Positions 7,310 through 54,193 are shown, counted from the first letter of the stretch. The stretch: DNA of 64,000 nt from an uncultured Desulfosarcinaceae bacterium (GCA_964527835.1 CAZGNV010000004.1:40079-104078); one strand, 5' to 3'. Program-made: numbers and translations. The notes: generated from the sequence alone by a model not told the origin.

Positions 7310-8029
7310 TTGAAAATGAATGTCCACATTACCGGAATCGGCTGGATCACTGCAGCCGGCAAGGGTTGCGGCCACCAGCAGGCGCATTTTTCGATGCCCG
7401 GCGGCCAGCTGCTGGAGATCAAAGCTTCAGACATTACTGCCGAGCCGTATCCGAATTTCAGACGCCTGGATGCTTACTGCCGCTTAGGGCTGGCGGCGGT
7501 CGCCTTTGCCCTGCGCGATGCCGGCCTGGATCAATGGGATGTCAAACGCGATATCGGCGTCATCGTCTCCACCGTGTACGGCTGCCTGGGCACTGACGTG
7601 GATTACTACCTGACCTTAATCCCCGAAGACGGCGCCAATGCCAGCCCGGTCCTGTTTTCCTATACCTCCCCAAACAGCTTTCTGGGGGAAGCCGCAATTT
7701 TTTTCGGGCTGACCGGACCCGGCTTTGCCATCGCCGAACAGCACCCCACAGGACTGGGCGCCTTGCAGGCGGCCATGATCCAGCTTTTCCGGCATGATGT
7801 GGGAAAACTGCTGGCCGGTGTGTGCGATGTGGGATGCCCCCCGCTTTTCAACCAACCCGCCACCGTGCCCCCCGGCGCTGTTTTTTTGATGCTCGAAAAA
7901 TTCCCGGACGCAAACCCCCGATCTTATGGCCAGCTTGACTTGAGTCCCAAAGGCGCTTTGCGGTTCAATGCAAATCCGGTCACGGACTTGACGACCCTGG
8001 TTCAGCACTGCCTGGATTCCCGCCGTTAG
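7310..8029 (+). CDS. Truncated non-catalytic KS partner (chain-length-factor-like)
   Basis: RRLDAYCRLGL, SPVLFSYTSPNSFLG, GLTGP; lacks catalytic Cys and His; immediately follows the KS. Confidence 0.8.
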   Translation: MKMNVHITGIGWITAAGKGCGHQQAHFSMPGGQLLEIKASDITAEPYPNFRRLDAYCRLGLAAVAFALRDAGLDQWDVKRDIGVIVSTVYGCLGTDVDYYLTLIPEDGANASPVLFSYTSPNSFLGEAAIFFGLTGPGFAIAEQHPTGLGALQAAMIQLFRHDVGKLLAGVCDVGCPPLFNQPATVPPGAVFLMLEKFPDANPRSYGQLDLSPKGALRFNANPVTDLTTLVQHCLDSRR

Positions 8030-8033
8030 CTGA

Positions 8034-8668
8034 GGGTCAAATTTGATTGCCGGGTCCTGGGTGGTTACGTAATAGCCTGACGACGGGGAAATGGCAGTTG
8101 GAGGTGGAGGTGGTGCCGGTGTTCCGATTGTGACATCGTCAATATACCATCCATCAGTGGTGGCACCACCGCCTCTTTCACGCAACCGGAAACGAACTTT
8201 AACCGTCTGGCCGCTGTAGGCGCTCAAATCGAGACGCCGTTCGTGCCACGTACTGATACTACCGGCATAATGTGCAAGATAATCTCAGGTCAAACCACCG
8301 TCCGTGATTATTTCTACATAACCGTAATCATCATCGGAAGAATAAAAATGATTGGCGAATTCATAATGCTGCCAGAAGGTCATGATGATGGAGGTAGATA
8401 CTGGTAACTCTATGCATGGTGAAATAAGAGCAGTACTCGCATCGGCAGGATAATTTTCATCCGGGCTGTCTGTCATGCAATGGTCAGCACTATGGTAGTC
8501 GGTTGTAATTAAAGCCCAGGTTCCTTCCGCTGTCCAACCTGCAGCTCCGCCCTCGAAATTCTCAGTAAAAGCCTCCGCGTGTCCGGGTAAGATCAGCAAA
8601 ACGAAAATAAATAGCAGAATCATTGACCATGCGCTTGCTTGTTTAAAAAAAACACCCATTTTTTTCAT
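8034..8668 (-). pseudogene. Secreted jelly-roll (MAM/immune-inhibitor-like) domain protein, interrupted by an in-frame TGA and 3' truncated
   Basis: ORFs 8285..8707 and 7616..8227 are in the same frame; read-through gives ITDGGLT*DYLAHYAGSISTWHERRLDLSAYSGQTVKVRFRL..GWYIDDV; signal peptide from ATG 8668. Confidence 0.72.
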
Positions 8669-8789
8669 CGTTCTCTCCCTTCCATGTTGATGTGAAAGGC
8701 TGAACATGAAAAGCTCAATTGCAAATAAAGATACAAAAGCTTTTCCCTATTGACCTGCTCGCTTTAAAACAAGTACAGGCAGAAAAGCA

Positions 8790-8830
8790 AAAGCCTCCAA
8801 AGAGGTTAAAATACCCTCCTTGGAGGCTTT
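8790..8830 (-). terminator. Intrinsic-terminator-like hairpin
   Basis: AAAGCCTCCAA..TTGGAGGCTTT stem followed by TTTTGCTTTT on the minus strand. Confidence 0.55.
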
Positions 8831-8980
8831 GTATCGGCAACTTCATAAAACCCTTCTTCATGGCTTGCTCCAGAAGATATTGGGTTGTTAACGGCCGAAT
8901 ATTAATAAAAAAGCAAGCTGCCCTATAATAGAACACTCCTCAATGTCAAGACAATTGTGGTTGCGGAAATTAATAGGGGA

Positions 8981-9120
8981 TCACATCTTGACTGGCAATT
9001 TAATATATTCAAGTTTTTTGTGTATGCCCTTGTTTTTTCCAGTAGGTCATTGAAAACTGCCGCCCGTCGGCTTACCGCGGAATAGGCCTGCCCGAACTTG
9101 TCTCCGATTTGCCAGTTAAT
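8981..9120 (-). pseudogene. C-terminal HTH remnant of a Y1 (REP-associated/IS200-like) transposase
   Basis: QIGDKFGQAYSAVSRRAAVFNDLLEK; adding one base in the A-run gives NKGIHKKLEYIKLPVKM-stop; homologous to the remnant at 51230-51343. Confidence 0.6.
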
Positions 9121-9147
9121 TGTTATTAGAGAAGACTCCACGGTCTT

Positions 9148-10290
9148 CTATGGCGGTGTGATGCTTATCTCGACATCGTCATAATATAAAGGCTGATCCA
9201 GTTTGCCGTTGCTGCTGCCGTCAATGCCGAAATAAAAAGTGTAACTTCCCATGGGCAGATCCGATATGTTCAGGACCTCGAGTGGAGGAGACAAATCAAA
9301 TAAAGGTCCTTGATACGAAACCTGGAATCCCGGCCGCCATGTCCCCGAATTATGGTAGTAGTACCACCCGAATGCCGTATCGGCGACACACCACCAGTCT
9401 GCCGGCATGCCCGGGCTGTTTCCAGCATCAAGCTCTATGGTTACCGAAAGCGGTTGACCATGAGCGATCTGTATGGGGCCGTCTGAACCGTTGGCCTTGA
9501 TTTTAGGAAAAATGCAAGGGCTTATCGCGGTAAGCCATGGATCGAAGTCAACATTGTCACTTACGTTATCGCCTGACCCGCCGGGATTGGAAGCATGACT
9601 CGGCCCACTGGCATCGCCCCACCAATTGTTTTCGGCTGATATGTCAGTTGAAGACGAATTTTGCAGCCCGTAGGTCATGTTGCCGAAGATATTATTATAA
9701 ATGATAGTCGGAGTGTTTTCATAGCCCTGGTAATGAATACCAATGTTGTTTTCGGTAAAATCACAGCATGAGATTTCAGCTGTACTGTTATATATGTACA
9801 GTCCGGCACCCGCGCTTTTTCGAGAAATACATTTTTTGATGGTGGGCTGTGAGCTGTGTATTTGTATGCTCCCGGAAAAACCGCCATATTCAATGATCGC
9901 ATTTTCTATAATGCTGTCATCTGCGGCATTTGAGCTGAAATAGATATCATTCCAATCCCCGGGCTGCGGGATGTCGGCATTGGAGGTAAATATGATTTTC
10001 TGTGAAGCCGTCCCCCGGGCGATCAGCCTGCCCGTCGTACCGGAAAGCTCGCCTATAATCAGCCTGGGATTGATGGCATCCGGATTGAACCTGACCTCAA
10101 CGCCCGGCTCGATGGTCAGGGTGGCGCCATTAATTACATGCAATAACGAATTGACAATATGAGGATTTAAATCAGGTGTCCATGTCTCGTCCGAAGAAAT
10201 CGTCCCACCGTGAATAACCGCACCAGCGAAGCCTGCAATGCTGAAAACGAATACCAAAACAAGAGAAGGAATGCCGATACTCTTTTTCAT
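9148..10290 (-). CDS. Secreted protein with right-handed parallel beta-helix (pectin-lyase-like) repeats and a C-terminal beta-sandwich
   Basis: Signal peptide MKKSIGIP.., TLTIEPGVEVRF, IIFTS..GDW, AENNWWGDASGP, NVDFDPWL. Confidence 0.78.
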   Translation of the reverse strand: MKKSIGIPSLVLVFVFSIAGFAGAVIHGGTISSDETWTPDLNPHIVNSLLHVINGATLTIEPGVEVRFNPDAINPRLIIGELSGTTGRLIARGTASQKIIFTSNADIPQPGDWNDIYFSSNAADDSIIENAIIEYGGFSGSIQIHSSQPTIKKCISRKSAGAGLYIYNSTAEISCCDFTENNIGIHYQGYENTPTIIYNNIFGNMTYGLQNSSSTDISAENNWWGDASGPSHASNPGGSGDNVSDNVDFDPWLTAISPCIFPKIKANGSDGPIQIAHGQPLSVTIELDAGNSPGMPADWWCVADTAFGWYYYHNSGTWRPGFQVSYQGPLFDLSPPLEVLNISDLPMGSYTFYFGIDGSSNGKLDQPLYYDDVEISITPP

Positions 10291-10418
10291 TATAAAACCT
10301 CCCATGTAAAAATATTAGTCAACAGTTAATGCAAGAAATAGCTTCCTTTTATTGAACAAAACAGATGATCACGTTAACCTTGTCAATAAAGCAATAATTC
10401 TGGGGACATCAAATTATT

Positions 10419-10455
10419 AATGATGTCTTGACATCATTTAAAAAGATGCTATGAT
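10419..10455 (+). promoter_or_regulatory. vapBC promoter with overlapping operator
   Basis: AATGATGTC-TT-GACATCATT inverted repeat overlapping TTGACA (10428); TGcTATGAT extended -10 at 10447-10455. Confidence 0.62.
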
Positions 10456-10461
10456 GCCAAC

Positions 10462-10707
10462 ATGAGAACGACACTCACCATAGATGACGATGTGATTGAA
10501 CGGGCACGAACTATCGCAGCTAAATTGAACACCCCGTTTAAGCGGGTTATCAACGAAGCGCTTCGTGCTGGCCTAGACCAGGTGGAACAGCCCGCGAAGC
10601 AGCGCCGCTACAAAACAAAACCGCACAAAATGGGCCTCCGGCAGGGCCGCAATCTGGACAATATCCAGGAACTATTGGCTCAGATTGAAGGCGAGGAATC
10701 CCGTTGA
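10462..10707 (+). CDS. vapB: VapB-type ribbon-helix-helix antitoxin
   Basis: MRTTLTIDDDV..VINEALRAGL; overlaps the toxin start. Confidence 0.85.
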   Translation: MRTTLTIDDDVIERARTIAAKLNTPFKRVINEALRAGLDQVEQPAKQRRYKTKPHKMGLRQGRNLDNIQELLAQIEGEESR

Positions 10708-11132
10708 TTCTCGTCGATGCCAATATTCTATTATACGCGGAAGACGCTTTACAGCCTTGTCACCAGAAAGCGCGGGCATGGTGGGATGGCCAGTTGTCCG
10801 GAACTGAAGTGGTCTGCCTGTGCTGGACAGTTCTGTCCGCATTTATTCGTATAGGAACCAATCCCAGGGTTTTTGAGCACCCACTCTCTCTCGAACAGGT
10901 ACTTGAGCGGGTGCAAAGCTGGTTGAATCAGCCCTGTACGCGAATCATTCGGCCGACCGAGCGACACTGGACTGTTTTCCGGCAGATGCTCACGGAGGGT
11001 CAGGCTGTCGCCAATCTGGTATCCGATGCGCATTTGGCAGCGCTTGCCATTGAACATGGCTGCGAATTGGCCTCCACCGATTCTGATTTCAGCCGTTTCC
11101 CCAAACTCAAATGGAAAAATCCCCTGGCCTAA
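10704..11132 (+). CDS. vapC: VapC PIN-domain toxin
   Basis: MILVDANILLYA, LVSDAHLAALAIEHG, STDSDFSRF. Confidence 0.92.
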   Translation: MILVDANILLYAEDALQPCHQKARAWWDGQLSGTEVVCLCWTVLSAFIRIGTNPRVFEHPLSLEQVLERVQSWLNQPCTRIIRPTERHWTVFRQMLTEGQAVANLVSDAHLAALAIEHGCELASTDSDFSRFPKLKWKNPLA

Positions 11133-14817: not shown

Positions 14818-17800
14818 GCGGCCGGCTGGATCTTTGCGATCATCCAAATCAATTCTCCATTGGCTCCTGAAGGTTGCGTGTGTTCAATGGAAAATCCGGC
14901 CTGCAGGAGCATGCTTTTGTTCTGAGCCACGGAGCGGTAATAGGCTGGTGTGCCGGAAAGTTTCAGCTTGAGGTTTTCCAGCCACCAGACCCAGGGCAGC
15001 CGTCTTTGGGGCGGGATGGTTGCCCTGACGATGAAACGTCCGCCGGGCCGAAGGCACTGGTAAATTCTTTTCAAGGCCAGGGGCAGGTCACGGTCATCCA
15101 GGTAGTGCATGATATCCATCATGACCACCAGGTCCGCCGGCTGCTCCGGGCAGGGGATGTCCGGGGCGCGGCCGATCTCAATTCGGCCCCTGTCTCCCAC
15201 GGCCCTGGCGGCGATCCGCACCCGCCCGGGGTCCGGATCGATTCCATGGACGCGGGCCAGGGGATACCGCTCCAGCAGCCAGCAGGCCGGAACCCCGTAA
15301 CCGCAGCCGATGTCGACAATCGTCTCGACCCCATCGCCGGGGGTCAAGATCTGCGGCAGTTCGGAAAACATCGGATCCAGGTCGACTTTAAACCTTGCAA
15401 ACAGGCGCGGATAGGCCTCCATGTTGCGGTAGCGCCCTAGCAGCCGCTGGCGCAGGGTCCCGCTGCATCGGCTTTTTTCCCGGCGGTGTTGAAACACCCG
15501 CTCCAGGACCGGCGGTAAAATGACAAAGGCTCCGATCAGACAATAGCCGATGCCCAGCAGCGAGGTCAGCCCGGCGCTTTTCAAAAGGTCGTGCTGCGCC
15601 GTGCACAGGACCCCGAACCCGATAAGAGTCGATGCCGCCGCCAGAAAAACCGTCATGCGGATCAGGGAGAAATAGGGATGGGCAAAATCGCCGTAGCGCT
15701 GATAGGAGCGGACGAAAAACAGGGAATAGTCCACGCCCATGCCGATGACGATGATGGCCAGCATCAGTCCGGGAATATCCAGCGGATGGCCGATGAGTTT
15801 TAAGGTGCCCAGGGTGCAGACCAGCCCGAAGACGACGGGCAGCAGGGCAATCACGGTCAGCGTGATGTCGAAGAAGAACACCAGCAGCAGCACCACCACG
15901 CTGAGGCCCACGATGGCCAGCATTTTCACGAAGGTGGCAAACAGCAGCTTGCCCATGTTTTGCGAAAACAGCTGCGGATCAAACACTTTGCCCAGCTGTC
16001 GGTAGCGGGCATAAAACACTGCCGCGTTGTAAGCCGGCCCGGTGCCAAGGGTCGAGACCTGCAGCCAGGAGTTTTCTGCCGGGCCGGGCACAATGCCCAG
16101 CAGGCTGAAAAATTTGGGTGGAATCGGCAGGGGCTGCAGTTGGACGGCATCGGGTTGCAGCATCTTGTAAAAGGGCGCGAACGCATCGGCGGCAAAGCCC
16201 AGCTCCCGGGAAGCCGCCTGGAGCACCTTTTTCACGGCGGTGATGCGCTCGGTGGTCCAGAAGTTTTTCCAGGCTGCAAGATTTTGCCGGCGGCGGCTTT
16301 CGCCGGGAAAAATCATGGAGGAGACAAAACCCGAAGAAAGCATGCCCGAGCGCCGGTCCTGCTCCAGCAGCTCCAGGAGCCGGTCATCCTTGTTTTGAAG
16401 GGCGCTGACGCTGTCGGCGGCGGTCAGCACGTAAATTCTGTCGAAGACCCAGCCCCACACGGCGGCAAGTTTTTTGTCGGCGGCAGCGGTCTGCGGCCTG
16501 ACCGTGTTCATGGCACTGAGTTTGACATTGAAATCCGGTTTGGCGAAAAACAGCATCAATGCGGCGAAGGCCAGGGCCATCCAGGCGCCTTTTTTGCCTG
16601 TACCGGAAAGCTTGTCGACCAGGTTATGAAGCGGCAGCGGCCGGGGACTTGCCGGCGCCATGGCGGGCAAAACCAGGGGCAAAACGCTGTGGACGAAGAT
16701 AAATGCAAAGGCGATGCCCAGGGCGGTGAATTGTCCCAGCTGGGCCAAAATGGGAAAACCGCTGAAATTGAGAGCGGCAAAAGCGCCGATGGTAGTCAGC
16801 ACCGCCAACAGGCCCACGGCCTTGACCTCGGCTGAGGCCTGCCGCCCGTAAGTTTGGCTGGGACGATCGACAAACAGCAGGTAGGCGATGGCATGATCGA
16901 CGGATATCGAGATGATAGCCCCGCCGAAACCGAGCACCATCAGCGATATGGACCGGTGCAGCAGGGAAAATACGAAAAACGCCAGCATGGCCCCGGCCAC
17001 GGCCGGCAGCAGCGACAGCAGGCCGATATAGGGCCGGGGAAATGAAATCAGCAGCAGCAGGATGATGCCCGCGGTTGCTAGCACGATTGCGTTGCGCACA
17101 TCGCGCCTGATAATCAGCTCGTTGTCCAGTGCCGCCCGGTAAGCCCCCACCGGGGTCAAAACAACCCGCTGGCCGGCGGCGGCCGGCTGTTGATTGAGCT
17201 GCCCGGCGATGTTGTCAATGACCGCCGCAGCCCGCCGGGCAAACTGCGTGTCAGTGCTCGAAGCTGCGGGATGGGCGATGACCAGCAGGTGCCTGCCGTC
17301 CGGCGACAAGATCTGCCCCCTGTAGATGTGCACCGACTGCGAAGGCGCCAAGTCGGCCAGCCGGGCCATCACCAGGTTTCTCAGCTCCAGCGGGTCTGCG
17401 GCAATAAACTGCGCCTGCCCGATGGCGTCGAGGCTTAACAGGTTTCGCCGCGTGGCGGCCAGCTTTTGCCGGATCTTTTGCGGTTCCAGCAATGGTTTGA
17501 CGTTGTCTTCGAGTTGGACGGCACTGAACATGGCCGGCAGATTGCTGACAACGTGAAATGCCAGTTTGGGGATCAGATCGCGGGTTTGCTGCAGGCCGAC
17601 TTTTTTAAACAGGCCGCTGTCTCTCAGGCTTTTTTCAACCTGCCGGCCGTATTCAACCAGCGCATCTTTGTCGGCCCGTTCAAGGTTGACATCGATGACC
17701 AGCTGATCCTGGATCGGGTTGTGGCGGAAGATGTAAAGCGCATCGGCGATGACGGGATCATTGCGGGGCAAAAATCCCATGATGTCCGCATCGATCTTCA

Positions 17801-46616: not shown

Positions 46617-47450
46617 ATGCATTTCAAAGTTACAACCCTGTCCGAAAACAACATTGGCCCCTCCAGCCAGGGCTTGATCGCAGAGCACGGCCTTGCGTTT
46701 TACATTGAGGCTGCAGATCGACGTATTCTGTTTGATACCGGGCAGAATCTCGTTATCGCCAATAATGCCGAAGTCCTGGGCATTGATCTTGTCCGTATCG
46801 ATACGGTGGTCTTAAGCCATGGCCATTACGATCACACCAGCGGCATTAAAACCCTTTTGAAGTGCAACACGGGTTTTACGCTTTATGCCCATCCGGATGT
46901 ATTTGACGCCAAACTAAGGGAGAAAGGCGATGATTACAAATATATCGGTATACCCGTTGACCGAAAGGAGCTGGAACAAAAGGGCATAAAAATCCAGCTC
47001 GACAGGGATCCCGTCTCCATAGCCCCCGGCATCACCACCACCGGAGAAATACCGCTTGATAATGATTTTGAAAAGGTGGGGTCAATTTTCTATCTTAAAA
47101 AAGGGGAGGATTATCCGGCCGATACCATGGTTGACGACCGGGCGATGATCCTGGATACGGACCAAGGAGTGGTGGTGCTGCTGGGCTGCACGCACCGGGG
47201 GGTGATCAACACCTTGGATCACGTTACCCAAATTAGCGGCCGCAACACGATCCATGCCATCATGGGCGGTCTGCACCTGGGCAACGCCTCAGGCGAGAAG
47301 CTGGCCACCGTAATCGAACACCTGCATGCCTTCGGGCTGGAAAAAATAGGCGTCGGGCACTGCACCGGCTACAAGGCCTTTGCGGCCCTTGCCAGTGAAT
47401 TCAAAGACAAGGTTTTTCTCAACGTGGTTGGCAATGTGATGCAATTTTAA
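46617..47450 (+). CDS. Metallo-beta-lactamase-fold hydrolase
   Basis: EHGLAF, LFDTG, SHGHYDHTSG, GCTHRG, GGLHL, HCTG. Confidence 0.88.
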   Translation: MHFKVTTLSENNIGPSSQGLIAEHGLAFYIEAADRRILFDTGQNLVIANNAEVLGIDLVRIDTVVLSHGHYDHTSGIKTLLKCNTGFTLYAHPDVFDAKLREKGDDYKYIGIPVDRKELEQKGIKIQLDRDPVSIAPGITTTGEIPLDNDFEKVGSIFYLKKGEDYPADTMVDDRAMILDTDQGVVVLLGCTHRGVINTLDHVTQISGRNTIHAIMGGLHLGNASGEKLATVIEHLHAFGLEKIGVGHCTGYKAFAALASEFKDKVFLNVVGNVMQF

Positions 47451-47629
47451 GATTGTGATCGTCTGGATCGTTTTGATGGTTTAGATCCTCCGCTTCTTCT
47501 AAGCCTTACCGGATCAAGCCAGAATTTTGCAACCTTATCATCATGTTCAACATGTATGTGCAGCGGCTCATCTCTATCATCGGCATAAAAGAAAAACCGA
47601 TATGGCCCAATTCTCATCACTGTTGGCAT
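47447..47629 (-). pseudogene. DUF4160-family protein, C-terminally truncated, no DUF2442 partner
   Basis: MPTV..GPYRFFFY..EPLHIHV..AKFWL; loses family-like sequence after SGG. Confidence 0.7.
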
Positions 47630-47741: not shown

Positions 47742-48251
47742 TCAATCGTCCTGGACTTGGGGCGCGCCAACCTGTTTTGCTGCTTGTCGGTGAATTCTGG
47801 TGGGCACAATAGGTGCTTCGCGTTCAATTTCCGCCCAGCGATCCCCTATTGCTTGCATGACCTGAGCTCGGGTTTCGCCACCGTGTGGACTGGTGTCAAG
47901 CGCTCGCTCTAAATCGCGCCGCAGCGCTCCGAAAGCAATGCTTGCAATGTTGTGCTTTTCGGCGAGAACTCCGTAATTGAGAAAAGTCTGAAGTGCGGCC
48001 AATACCGCTGCAAGACCCGACATCAGACCGGCGATGATTTTCCAAGTATCCGAGATGGCCTGTTCTGAAATCGTCGCGAAGATGCTAGTTCCAACGATGG
48101 TGGTGAGTATGACGACAGGCACGCCGAGCAGGCGCCCACGCCGCCGGAAGTTGGCAGCCGCCTTTGCGTGAGCGATATGCCACAATCTGATACCACGGTG
48201 CCACTGATTGAAGAGATCCGGCTTCCCGCAAGATTGTTCGTTATTCGTCAT
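47742..48251 (-). CDS. SLATT-domain 2TM effector
   Basis: H..AA..F..R..LLGVPVVILTTIVGTSIFA and GL..GLAAVLAALQTFLNY..AEKH; ATG 48251 overlaps the upstream stop (ATGA). Confidence 0.82.
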   Translation of the reverse strand: MTNNEQSCGKPDLFNQWHRGIRLWHIAHAKAAANFRRRGRLLGVPVVILTTIVGTSIFATISEQAISDTWKIIAGLMSGLAAVLAALQTFLNYGVLAEKHNIASIAFGALRRDLERALDTSPHGGETRAQVMQAIGDRWAEIEREAPIVPTRIHRQAAKQVGAPQVQDD

Positions 48252-50245
48252 CGTTTTACCTTTGCCTCCAAATGCCTTAAAAAGGATGTTATCGGCGATT
48301 CCGATCGGTTCTGTTGAATGCAATAGCGAATCAGTGCTTCCATAACCTGCCGAACCGTCGCCAGCAAAGACTCCAAATCGGAATCATTGTCTTTCCCATT
48401 CCACCGGCCGTGTGCTACAGTGTTGCGGAACGCGCGGCCTCGTTCGCGAAACCACCCGGACTCGGCGGCTTCGGTTACCTGGGCAACGAGATCCTCGAGC
48501 TGGACGGCGGCGCGCAGGGGGCGGAATCTGCCGAGAATTTCCTCCAGGACCGCAAAAAGCATTCCGGCACTTGCCTTGCCCGGAAAAAAACGGCTGGGGT
48601 GGGCCCTCAAGAATTCACCAATCAGTTCGTCAAGCTGGCCGTCGGAATGGTCCGCGGCGCATTGGGCCAGCAGCGCAGCCAAAGCTTCGATTCGTTCCAG
48701 GTCGTTTTGGGAGATGCGTTCATCAGGTTCATGGACCATTGTTTTCAGAATCGACTGACGAAAAATCGTCGGTATCCTGTACCGCACCATTCCTTCGTAT
48801 ATATACCAACCCAACAGCTCAGGATCAATGAACTTCGTAAAGCCGGCAAGGCGCAATACGGCAATCGCCTGACGGCGTCGCCGCTTTAAATCGGCCAGGT
48901 CGTGGCGGCCCTGGTCAAAGAGCCCAATGCACCCAACCGGCTGGACCAATTGGGTCTCGAGCGCCCCTTTGACCCGCAGTTCACCAATGAAATCTCTTTT
49001 GATGTCTCTTTCTTCCAACTCTACGAGTTCAACCGCATTTAACGGTACGATGGCGAAACTTCCTTCTCGCACAGCTAGCGTTTCATTGCAGGCCAGACCA
49101 AGCAGGGGGGACCAACTTGCCACCACGCCCTCTTCCGCGTGCATGACGCCCCCAGATACGTACGAATATGTTATGGAAGCATAATTCGCATGACTGAGAC
49201 GGTTGCTTGTTCTAAGTCCCGGAGGAGAGTCCAGGTCGAGAGGGCTGGCTGGAATTGGATGTTCCGGTGCGTTGCCCGCATCGAGTTGCTCGCGAAGGGC
49301 AGGTAATGGAATACCCGCGAGTACACTGGGGCCAAAAGCAAGTATCGATGCAGCCAATAGCTGCTGCGCGCCGCAGCCGTGGGTCAGCGCCTCGGCAGCT
49401 GACAAGTCTTTCGGATGCGATCCATGGAGGGCCGCGCTGCGGGTGTCGTAGAGAAGCCGTGCGGTCCGGGCGATGGTGCTCGCGTCATATGTGGCGGACA
49501 GCAAAGTTGTAAGTCGATCCGCAAAGGTTTTCTTTAACTGAGACCTCACCTCTGGAAGCAACAACGCCTCGAGAGCGATCGTTGCAAGAACCAGTTGATC
49601 CCGTGGCAGCAAGCTCGGTTCAGCGCACAGCAATAGTGCGTTGATCGCACCTGAGAGTGTCTCGTTCCGGCCCGCCGCTTCCACAAAGTTCCAGATGCTC
49701 GATGCAAAATCAACCGAACTTGCGGGTAAAGGTGGACCACTGGCTTCTGGAAGCAGCAGCCATTCGTGGTCAGCGTCTCCCTGTATGCGGGCTAGTATTC
49801 CACTGGTTTCGCTAATTTGGAAGTAGTGATCATCGGGCACGCAGATTGTCATCGAAGAGCGTGGTGATGCCGGAGCCGCGGCCGGGGCGGCAAGCGTCAG
49901 GGCCGCCTGTGCCGTCCAGCAGAAAGTCTTCTGGAATTGGGTCAAAAACCCGAATCCCATCTGCTCGAATTCCTCGTCGAACCCGTAGGTGGGTTTCTTT
50001 AGCTCGATATTGTTTGGCTTCTCTGGTTGACCCGGAACCAAAAAGGGCCAGTCGACTTCGATTTCGATAAAGAAAAAAACCGGCGCAGTTTGATCATAGG
50101 CTTCCTGATGCTCTTCGAAGGCTCCGGCCGTTTGCGCGTTCCATGCTACAAACGGGAATCGCCACAAAGATCCAGGCCCGAGGGGGCAGACTTCCTCAGT
50201 GCTTCGAATCATGGGAATGTGCGAGTAGTAGTTGACTATGGCCAT
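48248..50245 (-). CDS. Tandem ApeA-like HEPN-HEPN protein
   Basis: ALEALL..LYDTRSAALHG and LFAVLEEIL..FRNTVAHG: two RxxxxH motifs, each after a helical HEPN-like core. Confidence 0.75.
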   Translation of the reverse strand: MAIVNYYSHIPMIRSTEEVCPLGPGSLWRFPFVAWNAQTAGAFEEHQEAYDQTAPVFFFIEIEVDWPFLVPGQPEKPNNIELKKPTYGFDEEFEQMGFGFLTQFQKTFCWTAQAALTLAAPAAAPASPRSSMTICVPDDHYFQISETSGILARIQGDADHEWLLLPEASGPPLPASSVDFASSIWNFVEAAGRNETLSGAINALLLCAEPSLLPRDQLVLATIALEALLLPEVRSQLKKTFADRLTTLLSATYDASTIARTARLLYDTRSAALHGSHPKDLSAAEALTHGCGAQQLLAASILAFGPSVLAGIPLPALREQLDAGNAPEHPIPASPLDLDSPPGLRTSNRLSHANYASITYSYVSGGVMHAEEGVVASWSPLLGLACNETLAVREGSFAIVPLNAVELVELEERDIKRDFIGELRVKGALETQLVQPVGCIGLFDQGRHDLADLKRRRRQAIAVLRLAGFTKFIDPELLGWYIYEGMVRYRIPTIFRQSILKTMVHEPDERISQNDLERIEALAALLAQCAADHSDGQLDELIGEFLRAHPSRFFPGKASAGMLFAVLEEILGRFRPLRAAVQLEDLVAQVTEAAESGWFRERGRAFRNTVAHGRWNGKDNDSDLESLLATVRQVMEALIRYCIQQNRSESPITSFLRHLEAKVKR

Positions 50246-50277
50246 AAAGTCCTATTCGTCGTCAGAGTTAATTGATT

Positions 50278-50371
50278 AAAGATAGGAATACAAAAGGCAT
50301 TCGTCGGCGAAGGTATGTCCTGTGGACCCAAGGCGTTGACGAAGCAAAATACATGTCGTATCCCTATCTTT
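50278..50371. repeat. 94-bp bulged hairpin upstream of the HEPN gene
   Basis: AAAGATAGGAATAC / GTATCCCTATCTTT (13/14) and inner TTCGTCGGCG / CGTTGACGAA. Confidence 0.75.
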
Positions 50372-50375
50372 TACT

Positions 50376-50400
50376 GGCTAACGGCACCGAGTTTGCTCGA
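50376..50400 (-). other. Possible right half of a disrupted attC site
   Basis: Minus strand ..ACTCGGTGCC-GTTAGCC resembles the R' end of the attC at 52618; no left half present. Confidence 0.35.
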
Positions 50401-50404
50401 TCCC

Positions 50405-50520
50405 CCAACCATTTATCCAGAGGAGGCCAAGCTCATAAATTTTTTCAACCAGCAACAAAGGTATTACTGAAAGGACAATCCAAACACAATCTAAAAATGT
50501 GGATTAGCATTTTTGCTGGT
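50405..50520 (+). mobile_element. Degenerate IS110-family 5' remnant (tentative)
   Basis: GGAGG RBS then INFFNQQQRYY-stop and frameshifted HNLKMWISIF, resembling the MxFYxxQHxYYCGIDLHxxxMYVCIL N-termini of IS110 transposases. Confidence 0.35.
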
Positions 50521-50533
50521 TACTGCTACTATG

Positions 50534-51202
50534 TCAGGCATCCCAGGTTTTTGGGTTTTCACTTTTTTCTGCAAAGGCGTCCCAGGGGCAGGCCTTTCGA
50601 CAGGGGGCGGGACAAGCGGAGCAGGGATCAAAGTCAACAACCCCCGTGCTGGGCAGCTCGGCGCTTGTCAGCATGACACGAAGGCGCAAGCGCGGCCCGT
50701 AGCGAGGCGTGACCAGCAGATTGTTTTCGCCGCTACACCCCAGTCCGGCCAATACGGCGGCATCTTTCATGTAAACCCCACCGCGTTCAATATGGTAGGG
50801 CAACTTAAAACAGCGAATTCCATGCTTTCTTTCCAGCCACCCGGCCATCCTGGCCACCACCTCCATGAGCAGGAGGTCGCCGGCAGAATAAGCGCTGGTG
50901 GCGCCGATTATCCACCAGTCCAACTCGGGCTTTGCCGGTGGATGGCTCACTGCGACCACTACGGCGGAGCGTGCATCGTCGGGCCATTTTACGATACCGC
51001 GCCGGCGGCCGTCCAGCGGCATGGTGCCCTCGCCTTCAAATGCGGGCAGCTTGGGGGAAATTACATAGGAAGGTGCATTCCGCAAATCCTTTAGGTTGAC
51101 CACCCCGGCCAGGTCTGCTCCGAATTCTTTGGTCTTGGCAATGATCAACCTGATGAGGTCTCGTTCTTTTACTATACGGGAATGGTGGTTTTGAGATGGC
51201 AT
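50534..51202 (-). CDS. Epoxyqueuosine-reductase-like Fe-S/B12 protein, C-terminally truncated
   Basis: FGADLAGV, KDAAVLAGLG, NNLLVTPRYGPRLRL, CSACPAPCRKACP; second Cys cluster absent. Confidence 0.72.
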   Translation of the reverse strand: MPSQNHHSRIVKERDLIRLIIAKTKEFGADLAGVVNLKDLRNAPSYVISPKLPAFEGEGTMPLDGRRRGIVKWPDDARSAVVVAVSHPPAKPELDWWIIGATSAYSAGDLLLMEVVARMAGWLERKHGIRCFKLPYHIERGGVYMKDAAVLAGLGCSGENNLLVTPRYGPRLRLRVMLTSAELPSTGVVDFDPCSACPAPCRKACPWDAFAEKSENPKTWDA

Positions 51203-51206
51203 CTGT

Positions 51207-51232
51207 GGAAGTGGTGTCAGGAAGTGGTGTCA
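51207..51232. repeat. 13-bp tandem direct repeat
   Basis: GGAAGTGGTGTCA twice, at the end of the transposase remnant. Confidence 0.85.
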
Positions 51233-51343
51233 CATCTTGATTTGTGATTTAACGTGTTGGTATTTTCTCTTGAACGGCTTGTCTTTGTTCAGTTTTTCCT
51301 TTACCACGCGTACTCGTTGACTTACAGCCGAATAGCTCAGTCC
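51230..51343 (-). pseudogene. C-terminal HTH remnant of a Y1 (REP-associated/IS200-like) transposase
   Basis: Manual translation GLSYSAVSQRVRVVKEKLNKDKPFKRKYQHVKSQIKM-stop, starting next to the attC core. Confidence 0.65.
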
Positions 51344-51412
51344 AATGAACGGCAAAGCTGTGCGGGGCAAACGGAACGCAGCGTAGTTTGCGTCCTAACG
51401 AGCGCATTAGCG
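51344..51412 (-). other. Degenerate integron attC site
   Basis: Minus strand CGCTAAT..GGACGCAAACTACGCTGCGTTCCGTTTGCCCC..GTTCATT; the cassette stop codon lies in the inverse core. Confidence 0.65.
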
Positions 51413-51808
51413 GTTAAATTCAGCCAGTAATTCAAGGGCTAGTTTCTCCATTTTATCCAGGCTTATATCAGCTTTATCCAGGAACTCTTTGTCATAATGT
51501 CCTGGATCTGACCAATGCTTGCCTTTAATCTGGCAGCGCTTAGCTAGCTTTTTAATACCAAGATCTTCAAGTGCGAAACCGAGACCTGTCCAAAGTAATG
51601 ATAAGTGCCTTTCGGTGTTGTGATCTCGATTTCCATTATCATTCAATTGCCGGATGTATACCGCGGTTTCTCGCGATGCTGTTACGACCTTCCTCAATGC
51701 TTGAATGGATTCGTGCTTTCTTTCTGTTTTTGCGCGACGAAGATTTAGTAACCATTTATAACCATGATTAAAAAGGTCTCCTAATATTTTTGTTGTTAGT
51801 GCTTCCAT
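51407..51808 (-). CDS. Hypothetical 133-aa integron cassette protein
   Basis: Single AT-rich ORF filling the space between two attC sites. Confidence 0.75.
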   Translation of the reverse strand: MEALTTKILGDLFNHGYKWLLNLRRAKTERKHESIQALRKVVTASRETAVYIRQLNDNGNRDHNTERHLSLLWTGLGFALEDLGIKKLAKRCQIKGKHWSDPGHYDKEFLDKADISLDKMEKLALELLAEFNR

Positions 51809-51818
51809 TTGTTTTTAC

Positions 51819-51924
51819 CGCTATCGTCGTGGGTAACCAGCGGGCCGGACGAAATTCAAGATAGCACAGCCTTTAACGAAAACCGCACAGTTTCTTTACG
51901 TCTGATTCACCCGCCTTGTTAGCG
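51819..51924 (-). other. Integron attC site
   Basis: Minus strand R'' CGCTAAC, 5-nt spacer, L'' GGGTGAAT ... L' GGTTACC, R' GATAGCG. Confidence 0.82.
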
Positions 51925-51947
51925 TCCTTGTTCAATTTTATGCAGCC

Positions 51948-52253
51948 TTAAGCAGCAAATGTTTCAACAACTGGATCAATTTTTCGCCATTCTTTCGATT
52001 TGTTTGCGGCCTGCCACAAATCATAATTTCTTTGAAGATTGATCCAAAATTCTGGGCTCGTGTCAAAAGCCCTCGATAGTTTTAAAGCCATCTCTGGGGT
52101 TACTGATGCCCTTTCGTTTATGATTTTTGACAACGTCTTCCTGGATATTCCAAGAATATTGGATAGTTCAGTAATCGTTATGGATAATGGCTCCAAATAG
52201 TCTTCCTTTATTATCTGACCAGGATGGGTTGGCTTTCTTTTCATGATATTCAT
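51948..52253 (-). CDS. higA: HigA-family HTH antitoxin
   Basis: HPGQIIKEDYL, VTPEMALKLSRAFDTSPEFWINLQ. Confidence 0.93.
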   Translation of the reverse strand: MNIMKRKPTHPGQIIKEDYLEPLSITITELSNILGISRKTLSKIINERASVTPEMALKLSRAFDTSPEFWINLQRNYDLWQAANKSKEWRKIDPVVETFAA

Positions 52254-52268
52254 AAGATTCTCCTTTAT

Positions 52269-52547
52269 TCAATGATAGTCGAGATAATCAACATCAAAGG
52301 CATGACCCTGTTCGAACCGAAATATAATTCTCCAGTTACCGGATACTGAAACTGCATGCATGCCTTCATATTGGCCACTCAATAAATGTAAATTTGAACC
52401 GGGATAATGCATGTCTCTCAATTCGGTTGCCGCCTGGAGCCTGTCCAATATTTTGCCAAGTTTATTAGCATGTTCCGGCTTTATTCCCCTTTTTGATCCT
52501 GTATAAAAATATTTCTCAAGGCCTTTATGTTTGAATGATTTAATCAT
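52269..52547 (-). CDS. higB: HigB/RelE-family toxin
   Basis: MIKSFKHKGLEKYF, LHLLSG, VSVSGNWRIIFRF, LDYH. Confidence 0.93.
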   Translation of the reverse strand: MIKSFKHKGLEKYFYTGSKRGIKPEHANKLGKILDRLQAATELRDMHYPGSNLHLLSGQYEGMHAVSVSGNWRIIFRFEQGHAFDVDYLDYH

Positions 52548-52556
52548 ATATCTAAT

Positions 52557-52575
52557 CGTAACCACTTAGGTTACG
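52557..52575. promoter_or_regulatory. higBA operator palindrome
   Basis: CGTAACC-N5-GGTTACG just upstream of higB. Confidence 0.7.
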
Positions 52576-52617
52576 AATTGCAATAAAAAAAGAGACGACA
52601 CCGCCTTCTATATGTGG

Positions 52618-52690
52618 CGCTAACGGCCGAGCTCACTTGCCGCTGTGGAGCGCAAGCGAAACAGCGGTCAGGTGCAGCGGCTTGATACTA
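52618..52690 (-). other. Integron attC site (R'' damaged)
   Basis: Minus strand TAGTATC-AAGCC-GCTGCACCTGACCGCTG..CAGCGGCAAGTGAGCTCGGCC-GTTAGCG. Confidence 0.82.
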
Positions 52691-52909
52691 GTTATGGCCT
52701 TCCCTCAGATGAAAGGTTAAAATGGAAATACCTTTAACTCCAAAACCTTTCACCCAAAGGAGGCCAACTTATGTTAAAGCAATTCACAGAAAAGATTTTT
52801 CTTGCTGAGGAGAAAAATAAAGGGCGCTTTTCCTTATTAAAGTCCCCTGAGATCTTATGGAAGTCCAGCTTTTGCCGGCGGCCTAGCCGGAACTTTATTT
52901 TAGCCCTCC

Positions 52910-54193
52910 TTAAAATTTTTCTGGAAAACGAAAATCAACCTCGTAGGTTGAGTCTGCCAGCTCCAGGCGGCTGACGACCGGGGGGGTCCGGGCGATGACG
53001 TTGCCGCGGCGAATCACGAACAGCCGGGCCGGCTTCAGCCGCAGCGCTTCGTGCACATTGGCGGCCTGAACGATGACGATGTCGGCATTGCATCCCGGCT
53101 CCAGGCCGTAGCCCTGCAGTCCCAGTATTTTGGCCCCGTTGGTGGTGATGGCCGCAAATATCTGCTGCATCTGGTCGACACCGGTCATCTGGGCCACGTG
53201 CAGCCCCATGTGGGCGACTTCCAGCATGTCGTGGGAGCCGAAGCTGTACCAGGGATCCATGAGGGCATCGTGACCGAAGGCCACGCTGATGCCGGCTGCC
53301 ATGAGCTCTTTGACCCGGGTCATGCCGCGGCGTTTGGGGTAGGTGTCATGGCGTCCCTGGAGGGTGATGTTGATCAGGGGATTGGCCACCACCTGCATCC
53401 GGGCTTCGGCCATCAGGGGCAGCAGCTTGCTGACGTAGTAGTTGTCCATGGAATGCATGGATGTCAGATGGGATCCGGTGACCCGACCCTGCAGTTCCAG
53501 GCGCTGGGTATGATAGGTCAGGGTTTCGATATGGCGGGAATGCGGGTCGTCGCTTTCGTCGCAGTGCATGTCCACCGGCAGCTGCCTTTCAGCAGCCAGT
53601 TCGCACAGGGCCTTAATGGAAGCCGCACCTTCGGCCATGGTTCTTTCAAAGTGAGGAATTCCCCCCACAACATCAACGCCCATATCCAGCGCACGCTCGA
53701 GGTTGGCGGCACTGGAGGGGTGTCGAAAGTATCCGTCCTGGGGAAAGGCCACCAGCTGCAAATCGATATAAGGCTTGATTTCTTCGCGCAGTTCAAGGAG
53801 CGCTGCAACCGCCGGCAGCCGGTCATCGCTGACATCCACATGGCTGCGGATAGCCAGCGTGCCCCGGGCGATGGCCCAGCGGCAAAGCTGCCGCGCGCGC
53901 GCCTTGATGCTTTCAGCCGTCAGACTGGGCTTCAGTTCGCCCCACAGCTCGATGCCCTCCAGCAGGGTGCCGCTTTGATTGACCCGGGGCTGGCCGTAGC
54001 TCAGGGTGGAATCCAGGTGAAAATGGCTGTCAACAAACGGGGGGCTGGCCAGACATCCGGCGGCATCGATTTCCCGGTTTGCCTGGGCCTTCAGGCGGGG
54101 TGCGACCTGCACGATCCGCGCATTTTCCACGGCAATGTCGACTCCCGTGCGTCCGTCGGACAGGTTGGCGTTGCGGATGATCAGATCGAACAT
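52910..54193 (-). CDS. codA: Cytosine deaminase (amidohydrolase)
   Basis: DSHFHLD, VDVVGGIPHFE, DMHCDESDD, LQGRHDTYPKRRGMTRVKEL, FGHD..DPWY. Confidence 0.92.
   Translation of the reverse strand: MFDLIIRNANLSDGRTGVDIAVENARIVQVAPRLKAQANREIDAAGCLASPPFVDSHFHLDSTLSYGQPRVNQSGTLLEGIELWGELKPSLTAESIKARARQLCRWAIARGTLAIRSHVDVSDDRLPAVAALLELREEIKPYIDLQLVAFPQDGYFRHPSSAANLERALDMGVDVVGGIPHFERTMAEGAASIKALCELAAERQLPVDMHCDESDDPHSRHIETLTYHTQRLELQGRVTGSHLTSMHSMDNYYVSKLLPLMAEARMQVVANPLINITLQGRHDTYPKRRGMTRVKELMAAGISVAFGHDALMDPWYSFGSHDMLEVAHMGLHVAQMTGVDQMQQIFAAITTNGAKILGLQGYGLEPGCNADIVIVQAANVHEALRLKPARLFVIRRGNVIARTPPVVSRLELADSTYEVDFRFPEKF

Follow-up and report, generated by a model that had tools for sequence, protein, structure and literature searches.

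A rare, unannotated bacterial gene pair encoding a probable double-HEPN-type RNase and a SLATT-family membrane protein, the latter one of several alternative partners

The stretch of DNA analysed here, 64,000 nucleotides from an uncultured Desulfosarcinaceae bacterium (GCA_964527835.1, CAZGNV010000004.1:40079-104078; hereafter the window), carries on its minus strand a rare bacterial gene pair without annotation, which probably specifies a two-in-one RNase and a small membrane protein of pore type. The upstream gene (gene A) encodes a protein with two HEPN-type units and the downstream gene (gene B) a SLATT-family protein with two transmembrane (TM) helices. An earlier interpretation made from the DNA by itself (the sequence-only reading) had described a 665-residue open reading frame (ORF) whose stop codon overlaps, as ATGA, the start of a two-TM SLATT gene, and both the coordinates and the junction were borne out. 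The features of the pair are as follows.

48248..50245, minus strand: gene A, double-HEPN-type protein, ORF of 665 residues
47742..48251, minus strand: gene B, SLATT_4 two-TM protein, ORF of 169 residues
48248..48251, minus strand: ATGA stop/start overlap between genes A and B, read directly from the sequence
50246..50533, minus strand: intergenic stretch of 288 bp lying 5' of gene A, the presumed (putative) promoter/leader of the operon

The TGA of gene A occupies positions 48250-48248 and the ATG of gene B positions 48251-48249, yielding a 4-bp junction that recurs identically at the related loci L056/L057, L058/L029, L001/L002 and L055. An AGGA sequence is found about 9 nt ahead of the gene A ATG. 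A sigma-70-like match at consensus level runs from 50537 to 50509, of a kind that shuffled sequences give just as often; the scans for promoters and terminators, and those for tandem and dispersed repeats, produced nothing exceeding chance, and an Rfam scan detected no family and no non-coding RNA.

Relatives of the gene A protein are few. A search of 5.8 billion proteins returned only 26 clusters at 90% identity, of which 25 are full length and none bears a name or a Pfam domain, and a profile search with the family gave 904 matches among 1.84 billion cluster representatives. The sequence-only reading had reported two RxxxxH motifs, RSAALH (residues 269-274) and RNTVAH (residues 607-612). Both are invariant in 25 homologues; their positions in the window are these.

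49424..49441, minus strand: RSAALH motif, R269-H274, predicted catalytic half-site 1
48410..48427, minus strand: RNTVAH motif, R607-H612 followed by G613, predicted catalytic half-site 2

Across those homologues, which are 32-82% identical, R269, S270, H274, R607, N608, H612 and G613 do not vary, and the same is true of E226 and E568, which precede the respective Arg by 43 and 39 residues. Both motifs are retained in about 75 of 77 full-length cluster representatives, the first taking the form R[STNH]xxxH among the full-length representatives listed, and the motif pair, together with the polar residue after the Arg, is also kept in the split two-gene forms described below. Conservation of this order is far beyond chance. 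Outside the motif-bearing domains, the same 25-sequence alignment contains conserved HxPxxR and QGDADxE motifs in the first alpha/beta domain and invariant SPLxGL, EERDIRRDF and ALRLAGFxxFxDPELLG motifs in the second. In four long-read metagenome-assembled genomes from soil (L023, L025, L026 and L027) the gene copies are broken into 2-4 ORFs; these may be sequencing frameshifts or real pseudogenes.

An AlphaFold2 model of the gene A protein, built on the 25-sequence alignment, is a confident single body (predicted local distance difference test, pLDDT, 89.3; predicted template modelling score, pTM, 0.90). It shows two repeats, each composed of an alpha/beta domain of about 155 residues followed by a helical domain of about 160 residues.

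49769..50245, minus strand: alpha/beta domain 1, residues 1 to ~159, defined on the model; no Pfam or PDB match
49271..49768, minus strand: HEPN-type helical domain 1, residues 160 to ~325, all-alpha in the model
48710..49180, minus strand: alpha/beta domain 2, residues 356 to ~512, defined on the model
48251..48709, minus strand: HEPN-type helical domain 2, residues 513 to ~665; pLDDT 92 when the domain is modelled alone

In the HEPN fold the Rx4-6H motif, with a polar residue after the Arg, ends helix 3 (Anantharaman et al. 2013, PMC3710099); an acidic residue is found in helix 2, an insert separates helices 2 and 3, and helix 4 is often kinked (PMC3710099). The model places R269-H274 at the close of helix 255-274, after which come a loop and a kinked helix, with E226 in the preceding helix 214-229. 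Similarly, R607-H612 lies at the C-terminal end of helix 593-611, ahead of a loop and a long helix, and E568 is in helix 556-571. Inserts at 230-254 and 572-592 separate each glutamate helix from its motif helix. As modelled, both helical domains thus correspond to the HEPN definition of PMC3710099 in motif, motif position and upstream acidic residue.

Sequence comparisons point the same way at sub-threshold level. For helical domain 2, the HEPN region of NCBIfam Cas13e is matched at E=0.0054 with 15.9 bits where the cutoff is 175, and Pfam HEPN_Apea, over one motif region, at E=0.16 with 12.9 bits where 24.4 are required. The PDB Cas protein 8y7f is aligned on RNSVAHG at E=1.7, and it and the Cas13e region both match at the RNxxAHG motif; the N-terminal repeat is without any Pfam match. 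When sub-threshold Pfam matches were collected over 79 family members, five distinct HEPN families (RiboL-PSP, Apea, MAE_28990, Swt1 and DUF4145) made up 7 of the 27 family rows in two lists, HEPN_Apea itself being reached in 2 of the 79 members (E=0.16-0.26). Given a library of 24,736 models this enrichment is far above chance, yet it is weak evidence. Searches of PDB sequences with the protein, the family alignment and the sub-alignment of helical domain 2 (phmmer/hmmsearch) gave only matches of E>1, and a profile search with helical domain 2 recovered only partial members of this family and led to no annotated HEPN family. We therefore name the domains 'HEPN-type', from the motif, the predicted topology and the convergence of weak matches, membership of the HEPN superfamily being suggested rather than proven. 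The sequence-only reading is supported in placing two HEPN-type units in a single chain; its description of the repeats as ApeA-like did not hold, the HEPN_Apea match lying below threshold, PADLOC giving nothing and the architecture being different. Identity with ApeA was rejected on these grounds, on the lack of any match to the ApeA N-terminal domain and on the presence of a partner gene.

The two helical domains are related. Using 68 sequences, hhalign aligned helical domain 1 with helical domain 2 over about 120 columns at E=1e-4, bringing RSxxxHG onto RNxxxHG with the motifs in register and superposing the glutamate helices. A comparison of the N-terminal and C-terminal halves with 25 sequences was not significant (E ~0.1), and the alpha/beta domains are unrelated to each other by sequence (hhalign E=0.31). 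Natural split forms were also encountered, in which stand-alone proteins of about 300-336 residues match the N-terminal repeat. In all three split loci inspected the next gene overlaps or abuts the first and encodes a protein of 333-343 residues. Two of these loci are laid out as follows.

L063, 194-2169: split double-HEPN version, N-repeat gene then C-repeat gene
L064, 993-3533: split double-HEPN version, N-repeat gene then C-repeat gene

Against the C-repeat profile the second genes of L063 and L064 score E=1e-30 and 4e-38, respectively, and against the N-repeat profile about 1e-8; both carry RNxVAHG. Protein P0166 (325 residues, N-repeat) is followed by an overlapping gene for 333 residues (C-repeat 1e-30, N-repeat 1e-8), and the same order of N-repeat gene then C-repeat gene is seen at L064 and for P0169. 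In L064 the split pair is preceded by a SLATT_4 gene and an ORF of 154 residues without assigned function. From the split forms and the repeat homology, the 665-residue protein corresponds to two paralogous subunits in one chain, a fused heterodimer. Since HEPN RNases require two motifs to be brought together (PMC13043305), and Cas13 pairs its two HEPN motifs intramolecularly (PMC12165695), these precedents add support to the single-chain pseudo-dimer proposed in the sequence-only reading, an idea with which the hhalign result and the split genes are both consistent.

Gene B is a genuine SLATT family 4 protein, as its earlier description as a two-TM SLATT-type gene had anticipated. It scores 103.3 bits against NCBIfam SLATT_4 NF033632 (cutoff 55) over residues 15-161, and lies just under the cutoff for Pfam SLATT_4 (22.9 bits against 27) and for DUF4231. 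In PADLOC it matches the CBASS-type two-TM effector PDLC00712 at 1.5e-12 and, more weakly, the reverse transcriptase (RT)-associated SLATT at 2e-3; the protein matched nothing in the PDB. Kyte-Doolittle hydropathy in a 19-residue window located the TM helices.

48066..48134, minus strand: SLATT TM helix 1, about residues 40-62, maximum hydropathy 2.16
47976..48050, minus strand: SLATT TM helix 2, about residues 68-92, maximum hydropathy 1.91

The hydropathy peaks, at about residues 39-62 and 69-92, agree with the SLATT layout of two TM helices and then a helical cytoplasmic tail, and the SLATT homologues of L001 and L064 have the same two-TM hydropathy pattern.

The pairing of core and SLATT was assessed among 64 related loci, which reduce to about 46 distinct ones. 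SLATT_4 is a neighbour of the core in 7 of the ~46, in three gene arrangements: downstream with the 4-bp overlap and with unrelated flanks in the window, L056/L057 (82% identity) and L058/L029 (68%); upstream and overlapping the start of the core gene in L001/L002, L027 and L055; and upstream of the split pair in L064. All three loci at 65% identity or above keep SLATT downstream with the 4-bp overlap, and it is the more distant versions, fused and split, that have it upstream. Identities of SLATT and HEPN proteins move together (82/77, 69/69 and 40/43%), and the pairing is therefore old and co-inherited. The sequence-only reading had proposed a neighbourhood search for conserved pairing of the two genes; the association is kept and co-diverges where it occurs, but it occurs in a minority of loci. 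Because SLATT is found in so few, a double-HEPN core that exchanges its partner describes the system better than the label HEPN-SLATT does.

SLATT is, indeed, one of about eight alternative partners of the core. A protein of about 340 residues with one N-terminal TM helix adjoins it in 11 loci, either co-directionally or divergently, and matches the PADLOC RT-associated TM model at 5e-6. Seven loci have a lipase-like hydrolase of AHSA1-TM-GHSLGS layout, mostly downstream and overlapping, in which an AHSA1/SRPBCC-like N-terminal domain and 2-3 TM helices accompany a GHSLGS serine-hydrolase motif; it gives a weak Lipase_3 match and no PADLOC model (L012, L015, L031, L033, L042 and L062, in each of which it lies downstream of the HEPN gene). 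An MBL protein together with an HExxH protease occurs in 3-4 loci in varied orientations, its MBL member matching PADLOC LmuA at 5e-17 and also the RT-associated MBL and Avs1a models.

L009/L028, 1-3221: HExxH metalloprotease-like and MBL-fold pair
L059, 2394-5032: HExxH metalloprotease-like and MBL-fold pair
L061, 1-582: HExxH metalloprotease-like and MBL-fold pair

By analogy, these MBL/protease neighbours resemble the exchangeable module of UG/Abi RT systems. In 2 loci the neighbour combines HEAT repeats with two TM helices at its C-terminus, in 3 it is a multi-TM protein of 278 residues and in 3-4 a soluble protein of 367 residues. In other members (P0072-P0076 and P0081, 800-944 residues) the core itself is extended by C-terminal TPR/Sel1 repeats (Pfam TPR_2 6.6e-18, Sel1 5e-10), a typical sensor-type extension. 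Both SLATT and the MBL/protease pair are modules swapped among defence systems (Mestre et al. 2022, PMC9226505), and several of the alternative partners are known exchangeable defence effectors. PADLOC assigned neither the split relatives nor several of the partners to any named system. YhhN (L009/L028/L049), Maf (L008/L060), DUF998 (L011) and DUF6273 (L012) were considered as partners and rejected, since they look like ordinary neighbours.

Among characterised systems the closest working analogue, by our comparison, is Cas13b-Csx28 (type VI-B2), in which a double-HEPN RNase and a membrane pore make up an abortive-type defence (bioRxiv 10.1101/2021.11.02.466367; PMC12165695). The likeness lies in two HEPN domains per polypeptide, an intramolecular RNase site (here predicted) and an adjoining gene for a small membrane protein, which in Cas13b-Csx28 forms a pore and depolarises the cell. 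Unlike that system, the present one has no CRISPR array, no CRISPR RNA and no Cas13 homology, the partner is SLATT_4, an alpha/beta domain accompanies each HEPN unit, and there are split forms and many alternative partners. Identity as a type VI CRISPR-Cas13 system was rejected, since no array is present in the 38-60 kb region and the Cas13e model stays below its cutoff. For the coupling to SLATT the closest analogue is DRT10 (UG17 RT plus SLATT-5), which, like the CBASS/Pycsar two-TM systems, has a SLATT gene overlapping stop to start with an enzyme gene, both orders being known, and in which SLATT acts as an exchangeable effector or accessory module. SLATT is likewise an accessory in RADAR, DRT3 and AbiA (PMC9226505; bioRxiv 10.64898/2026.04.29.721553). 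The present enzyme, unlike those of the SLATT systems, is neither a cyclase nor an RT, no non-coding RNA was detected, and the SLATT belongs to family 4, not 5. As the sequence-only reading had stated for cyclases, neither a cyclase nor an RT turned up when the flanking ORFs were scanned with Pfam and PADLOC, and no cyclase was present in the related loci with called genes. A CBASS/Pycsar-type system was accordingly rejected, there being no CD-NTase/SMODS or pyrimidine cyclase with the effector in those scans.

Comparison with single-HEPN systems is also instructive. ApeA (Gao_Ape) resembles the core in joining a HEPN-type RNase to large non-catalytic domains (bioRxiv 10.64898/2026.01.26.701840; 10.64898/2026.03.20.713152), and its ligand pocket offers a plausible parallel for the invariant motifs that the gene A protein has outside its HEPN-type domains. 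It differs in its largely helical build, made up of an N-terminal domain, a Mid domain and a split HEPN domain (bioRxiv 10.64898/2026.01.26.701840), in having one HEPN per chain, in forming homodimers that assemble into decamers or dodecamers and in having no partner gene. HepT/MntA (type VII toxin-antitoxin), HepS and Tha share the Rx4-6H HEPN RNase, the two paired motifs and the abortive or toxin logic (PMC13043305, PMC11087260), but are small homodimeric or tetrameric proteins with a single HEPN, whereas here diverged paralogues are fused and accompanied by extra domains and a membrane partner. No minimal nucleotidyltransferase antitoxin is adjacent, and a HepT/MntA system was rejected for this reason. 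Families with a constant core and swappable effectors (Lamassu LmuA variants, Avs and UG/Abi RTs; PMC9226505) are alike in that the same effector families adjoin the core, namely MBL (LmuA/Avs1a/RT-associated), the MBL/protease pair, RT-associated TM and SLATT. The difference is that the constant core here is double-HEPN, not an SMC-like ATPase, STAND NTPase or RT. The claim that this architecture is not a named system has stood up: the core has no Pfam family above threshold, no PADLOC-DB v2 model and no solved relative, and we found no publication on a double-HEPN plus SLATT system, in a comparison that did not take in the SLATT-defining paper of Burroughs et al. 2015. Components and logic alike are already known; the architecture is not.

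The enzyme is the fixed element in different bacteria and the partner the exchanged one, and the pair looks like an undescribed anti-phage suicide module. Our preferred reading, which we would put at somewhat better than an even chance, is of a conflict module of two genes that moves horizontally, most probably a modular abortive-infection anti-phage system. The sequences themselves establish the layout of the genes, the invariance of the motifs, the homology of the repeats, the split forms, the co-divergence with SLATT and the exchange of partners with known defence effector modules; catalysis, the composite site, the role in defence and the mode of SLATT activation are inferred. Carriers are found in Desulfobacterota, several actinobacterial classes (Actinomycetota), Burkholderiales, Hyphomicrobiales, Planctomycetota, Chloroflexota and Saccharimonadales, in a patchy distribution and with flanks that differ from locus to locus. 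For the gene A protein we infer RNase activity at one intramolecular, composite, metal-independent site, predicted to form as it does in Cas13, because HEPN RNases need two motifs brought together. Translational coupling would supply SLATT in fixed proportion, as a predicted membrane-perturbing co-effector. An infection cue might be sensed by the alpha/beta domains, which may also dock the partner, or by the partner interface; the RNase would then be switched on and SLATT released or opened, and RNA cleavage and membrane depolarisation together would halt the cell before the phage completes its cycle. Direct protein-protein control of SLATT is favoured over a diffusible RNA-derived signal, being the more economical because the alternative partners, such as the lipase-like hydrolase and the MBL/protease pair, are unrelated. 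A bolder form of this reading, which we think rather unlikely, makes the double-HEPN protein the sensor-activator hub of an unrecognised, widespread but rare modular immune family, a CRISPR-independent counterpart of Cas13b-Csx28 in which the RNase (heterodimeric in the split forms) senses through its alpha/beta domains and activates the adjoining effector by contact or through RNA products.

Several observations weigh against a HEPN-based defence module. No curated HEPN model of Pfam or NCBIfam attains its threshold for the gene A protein, and the best HEPN Pfam matches (E=0.083-0.26; 8 member-hits over the 79 members) are all below threshold. Structure prediction, proposed beforehand as a check, upheld HEPN-type topology at both motifs, but Foldseek searches with the full model (PDB, BFVD) and with residues 505-665 (PDB) gave nothing significant, the best E-values being 0.19-0.86; against the PDB they were 0.46-0.86, with HepT 7ae8 (E=5.1) and Csm6 6tug (E=3) appearing amid generic helical bundles. 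About 9 of the ~46 distinct loci have no recurrent partner. The window neighbours give weak PADLOC matches only, the neighbourhoods of the homologues are mostly not classical defence islands, neither IMG/VR viral contigs nor PLSDB plasmids contain homologues, and the sole public run containing the locus appears to be DNA.

The pair might instead be a toxin-antitoxin or addiction module with no anti-phage role, in which one protein is a toxin restrained by the other and the carrier DNA is stabilised. HEPN RNases are common as toxins of such modules (HepT/MntA; PMC3710099), this one is compact and mobile with variable flanks, and other toxin-antitoxin genes (HigBA) share its region of the window. 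A 665-residue, two-repeat protein with sensor-like domains and swappable effectors, fused TPR and HEAT proteins included, does not follow the pattern of a simple toxin-antitoxin pair, however; the neighbours have no nucleotidyltransferase domain or other known HEPN antitoxin, and no plasmid copies exist among the sequences searched. We consider this account improbable, noting that toxin-antitoxin and defence roles can coexist. A second alternative is the signalling model of the sequence-only reading, in which the HEPN RNase would produce the signal: short RNAs or oligonucleotides released by cleavage, ending in 2',3'-cyclic phosphate, would bind the SLATT pore and open it, by analogy with cyclase-SLATT systems. 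SLATT is an effector in nucleotide-signalling systems, as the PADLOC CBASS-type two-TM matches recall, no adjacent cyclase or RT offers another source of signal, pore-dependent depolarisation by Cas13b-Csx28 needs RNase activity (bioRxiv 10.1101/2021.11.02.466367), and a nucleic-acid product has been proposed as the SLATT trigger in DRT10 (bioRxiv 10.64898/2026.04.29.721553). Such a mechanism is nevertheless quite improbable here: partners as unrelated as the lipase-like, MBL/protease, one-TM, HEAT-two-TM and fused TPR proteins would hardly all respond to a single ligand derived from RNA, outside its SLATT core the 169-residue protein shows no domain recognisable as ligand-binding, and tight 4-bp coupling with co-divergence points to a physical complex.

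Two further accounts were weighed. In one, the HEPN-type domains would bind nucleotide or RNA without cleaving it, so that the protein would be a regulator or sensor, and the SLATT, lipase and MBL partners would do all the damage. The partners are typical effectors, certain HEPN domains are non-catalytic binders (PMC3710099) and the core matches no characterised HEPN RNase significantly. Non-catalytic HEPN domains, however, usually lose the Rx4-6H motif (PMC3710099), whereas here the Arg, the polar residue, the His and the upstream Glu are invariant in both repeats over deep divergence, split forms included, and the partnerless loci imply that the core can act alone; we give this account little credence. 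The other would make the protein a housekeeping or stress RNase tethered to the membrane by SLATT, in the manner of Ire1 or RNase Y, and no conflict system at all. Mostly metabolic gene neighbourhoods and the many membrane proteins among the partners fit this picture. It is set against the great rarity and patchiness of a family that spans distant phyla, partners that vary and include defence-type MBL and RT-associated TM and SLATT families, and the lack of conserved synteny with RNA-metabolism genes, and is very improbable.

If the preferred reading of an anti-phage module is correct, the family would represent a new architecture in HEPN immunity, with a heterodimeric HEPN RNase fixed in one chain outside CRISPR, putative sensing domains and an exchangeable menu of effectors. 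It would offer a simple two-gene model for activation of the SLATT pore without a cyclase or RT, and for the cooperation of a HEPN RNase with a membrane effector, a matter that is unsettled for Cas13b-Csx28 too. The split and fused forms constitute a natural experiment on the origin of intramolecular HEPN pairs such as that of Cas13. Cultured carriers exist (Pelomonas sp. Root405 and Jiella pelagia HL-NP1), which makes experiments on the family feasible.

In the window the pair is flanked on one side by an MBL-fold gene and a DUF4160 ORF, and on the other by two unannotated ORFs, a HigBA pair and an amidohydrolase gene.

46617-47450: MBL-fold gene, convergent to the pair
47447-47629, minus strand: DUF4160 ORF, 60 residues, directly downstream of the SLATT gene (2.7e-10)
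50534-51202, minus strand: ORF of 222 residues with a Cys-rich C-terminus, CSACPAPCRKACPW; no Pfam or PADLOC match
51407-51808, minus strand: ORF of 133 residues; no Pfam or PADLOC match
51948-52253, minus strand: XRE/HigA-type antitoxin (HTH_3, 1.4e-11)
52269-52565, minus strand: HigB-like toxin (PF05015, 9.8e-20)

The 3' end of the DUF4160 ORF overlaps the end of the MBL-fold gene, and no partner of DUF2442 type was seen. The ORFs of 222 and 133 residues upstream of gene A are not conserved beside its homologues. Of the accessory features that the sequence-only reading had placed around the pair, the attC sites were not recovered: a crude regular-expression scan for RYYYAAC..GTTRRRY core pairs found none in 44-54.5 kb and, in the whole window, one attC-core-like pair (17433-17519) against 8.2 expected from shuffles, which is no sign of an integron. 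An integron gene cassette was rejected on the same scan, there being no flanking attC cores. Toxin-antitoxin genes, by contrast, do lie nearby, the type II HigB/HigA pair extending over 51948-52565 in the part of the window with the lowest G+C (0.42-0.45). Around genes A and B themselves G+C is somewhat below that of the flanks. Along the window it dips to 0.42-0.49 at 8001-11000 and 51001-53000, against about 0.58 elsewhere, which suggests that the low-G+C segments were horizontally acquired.

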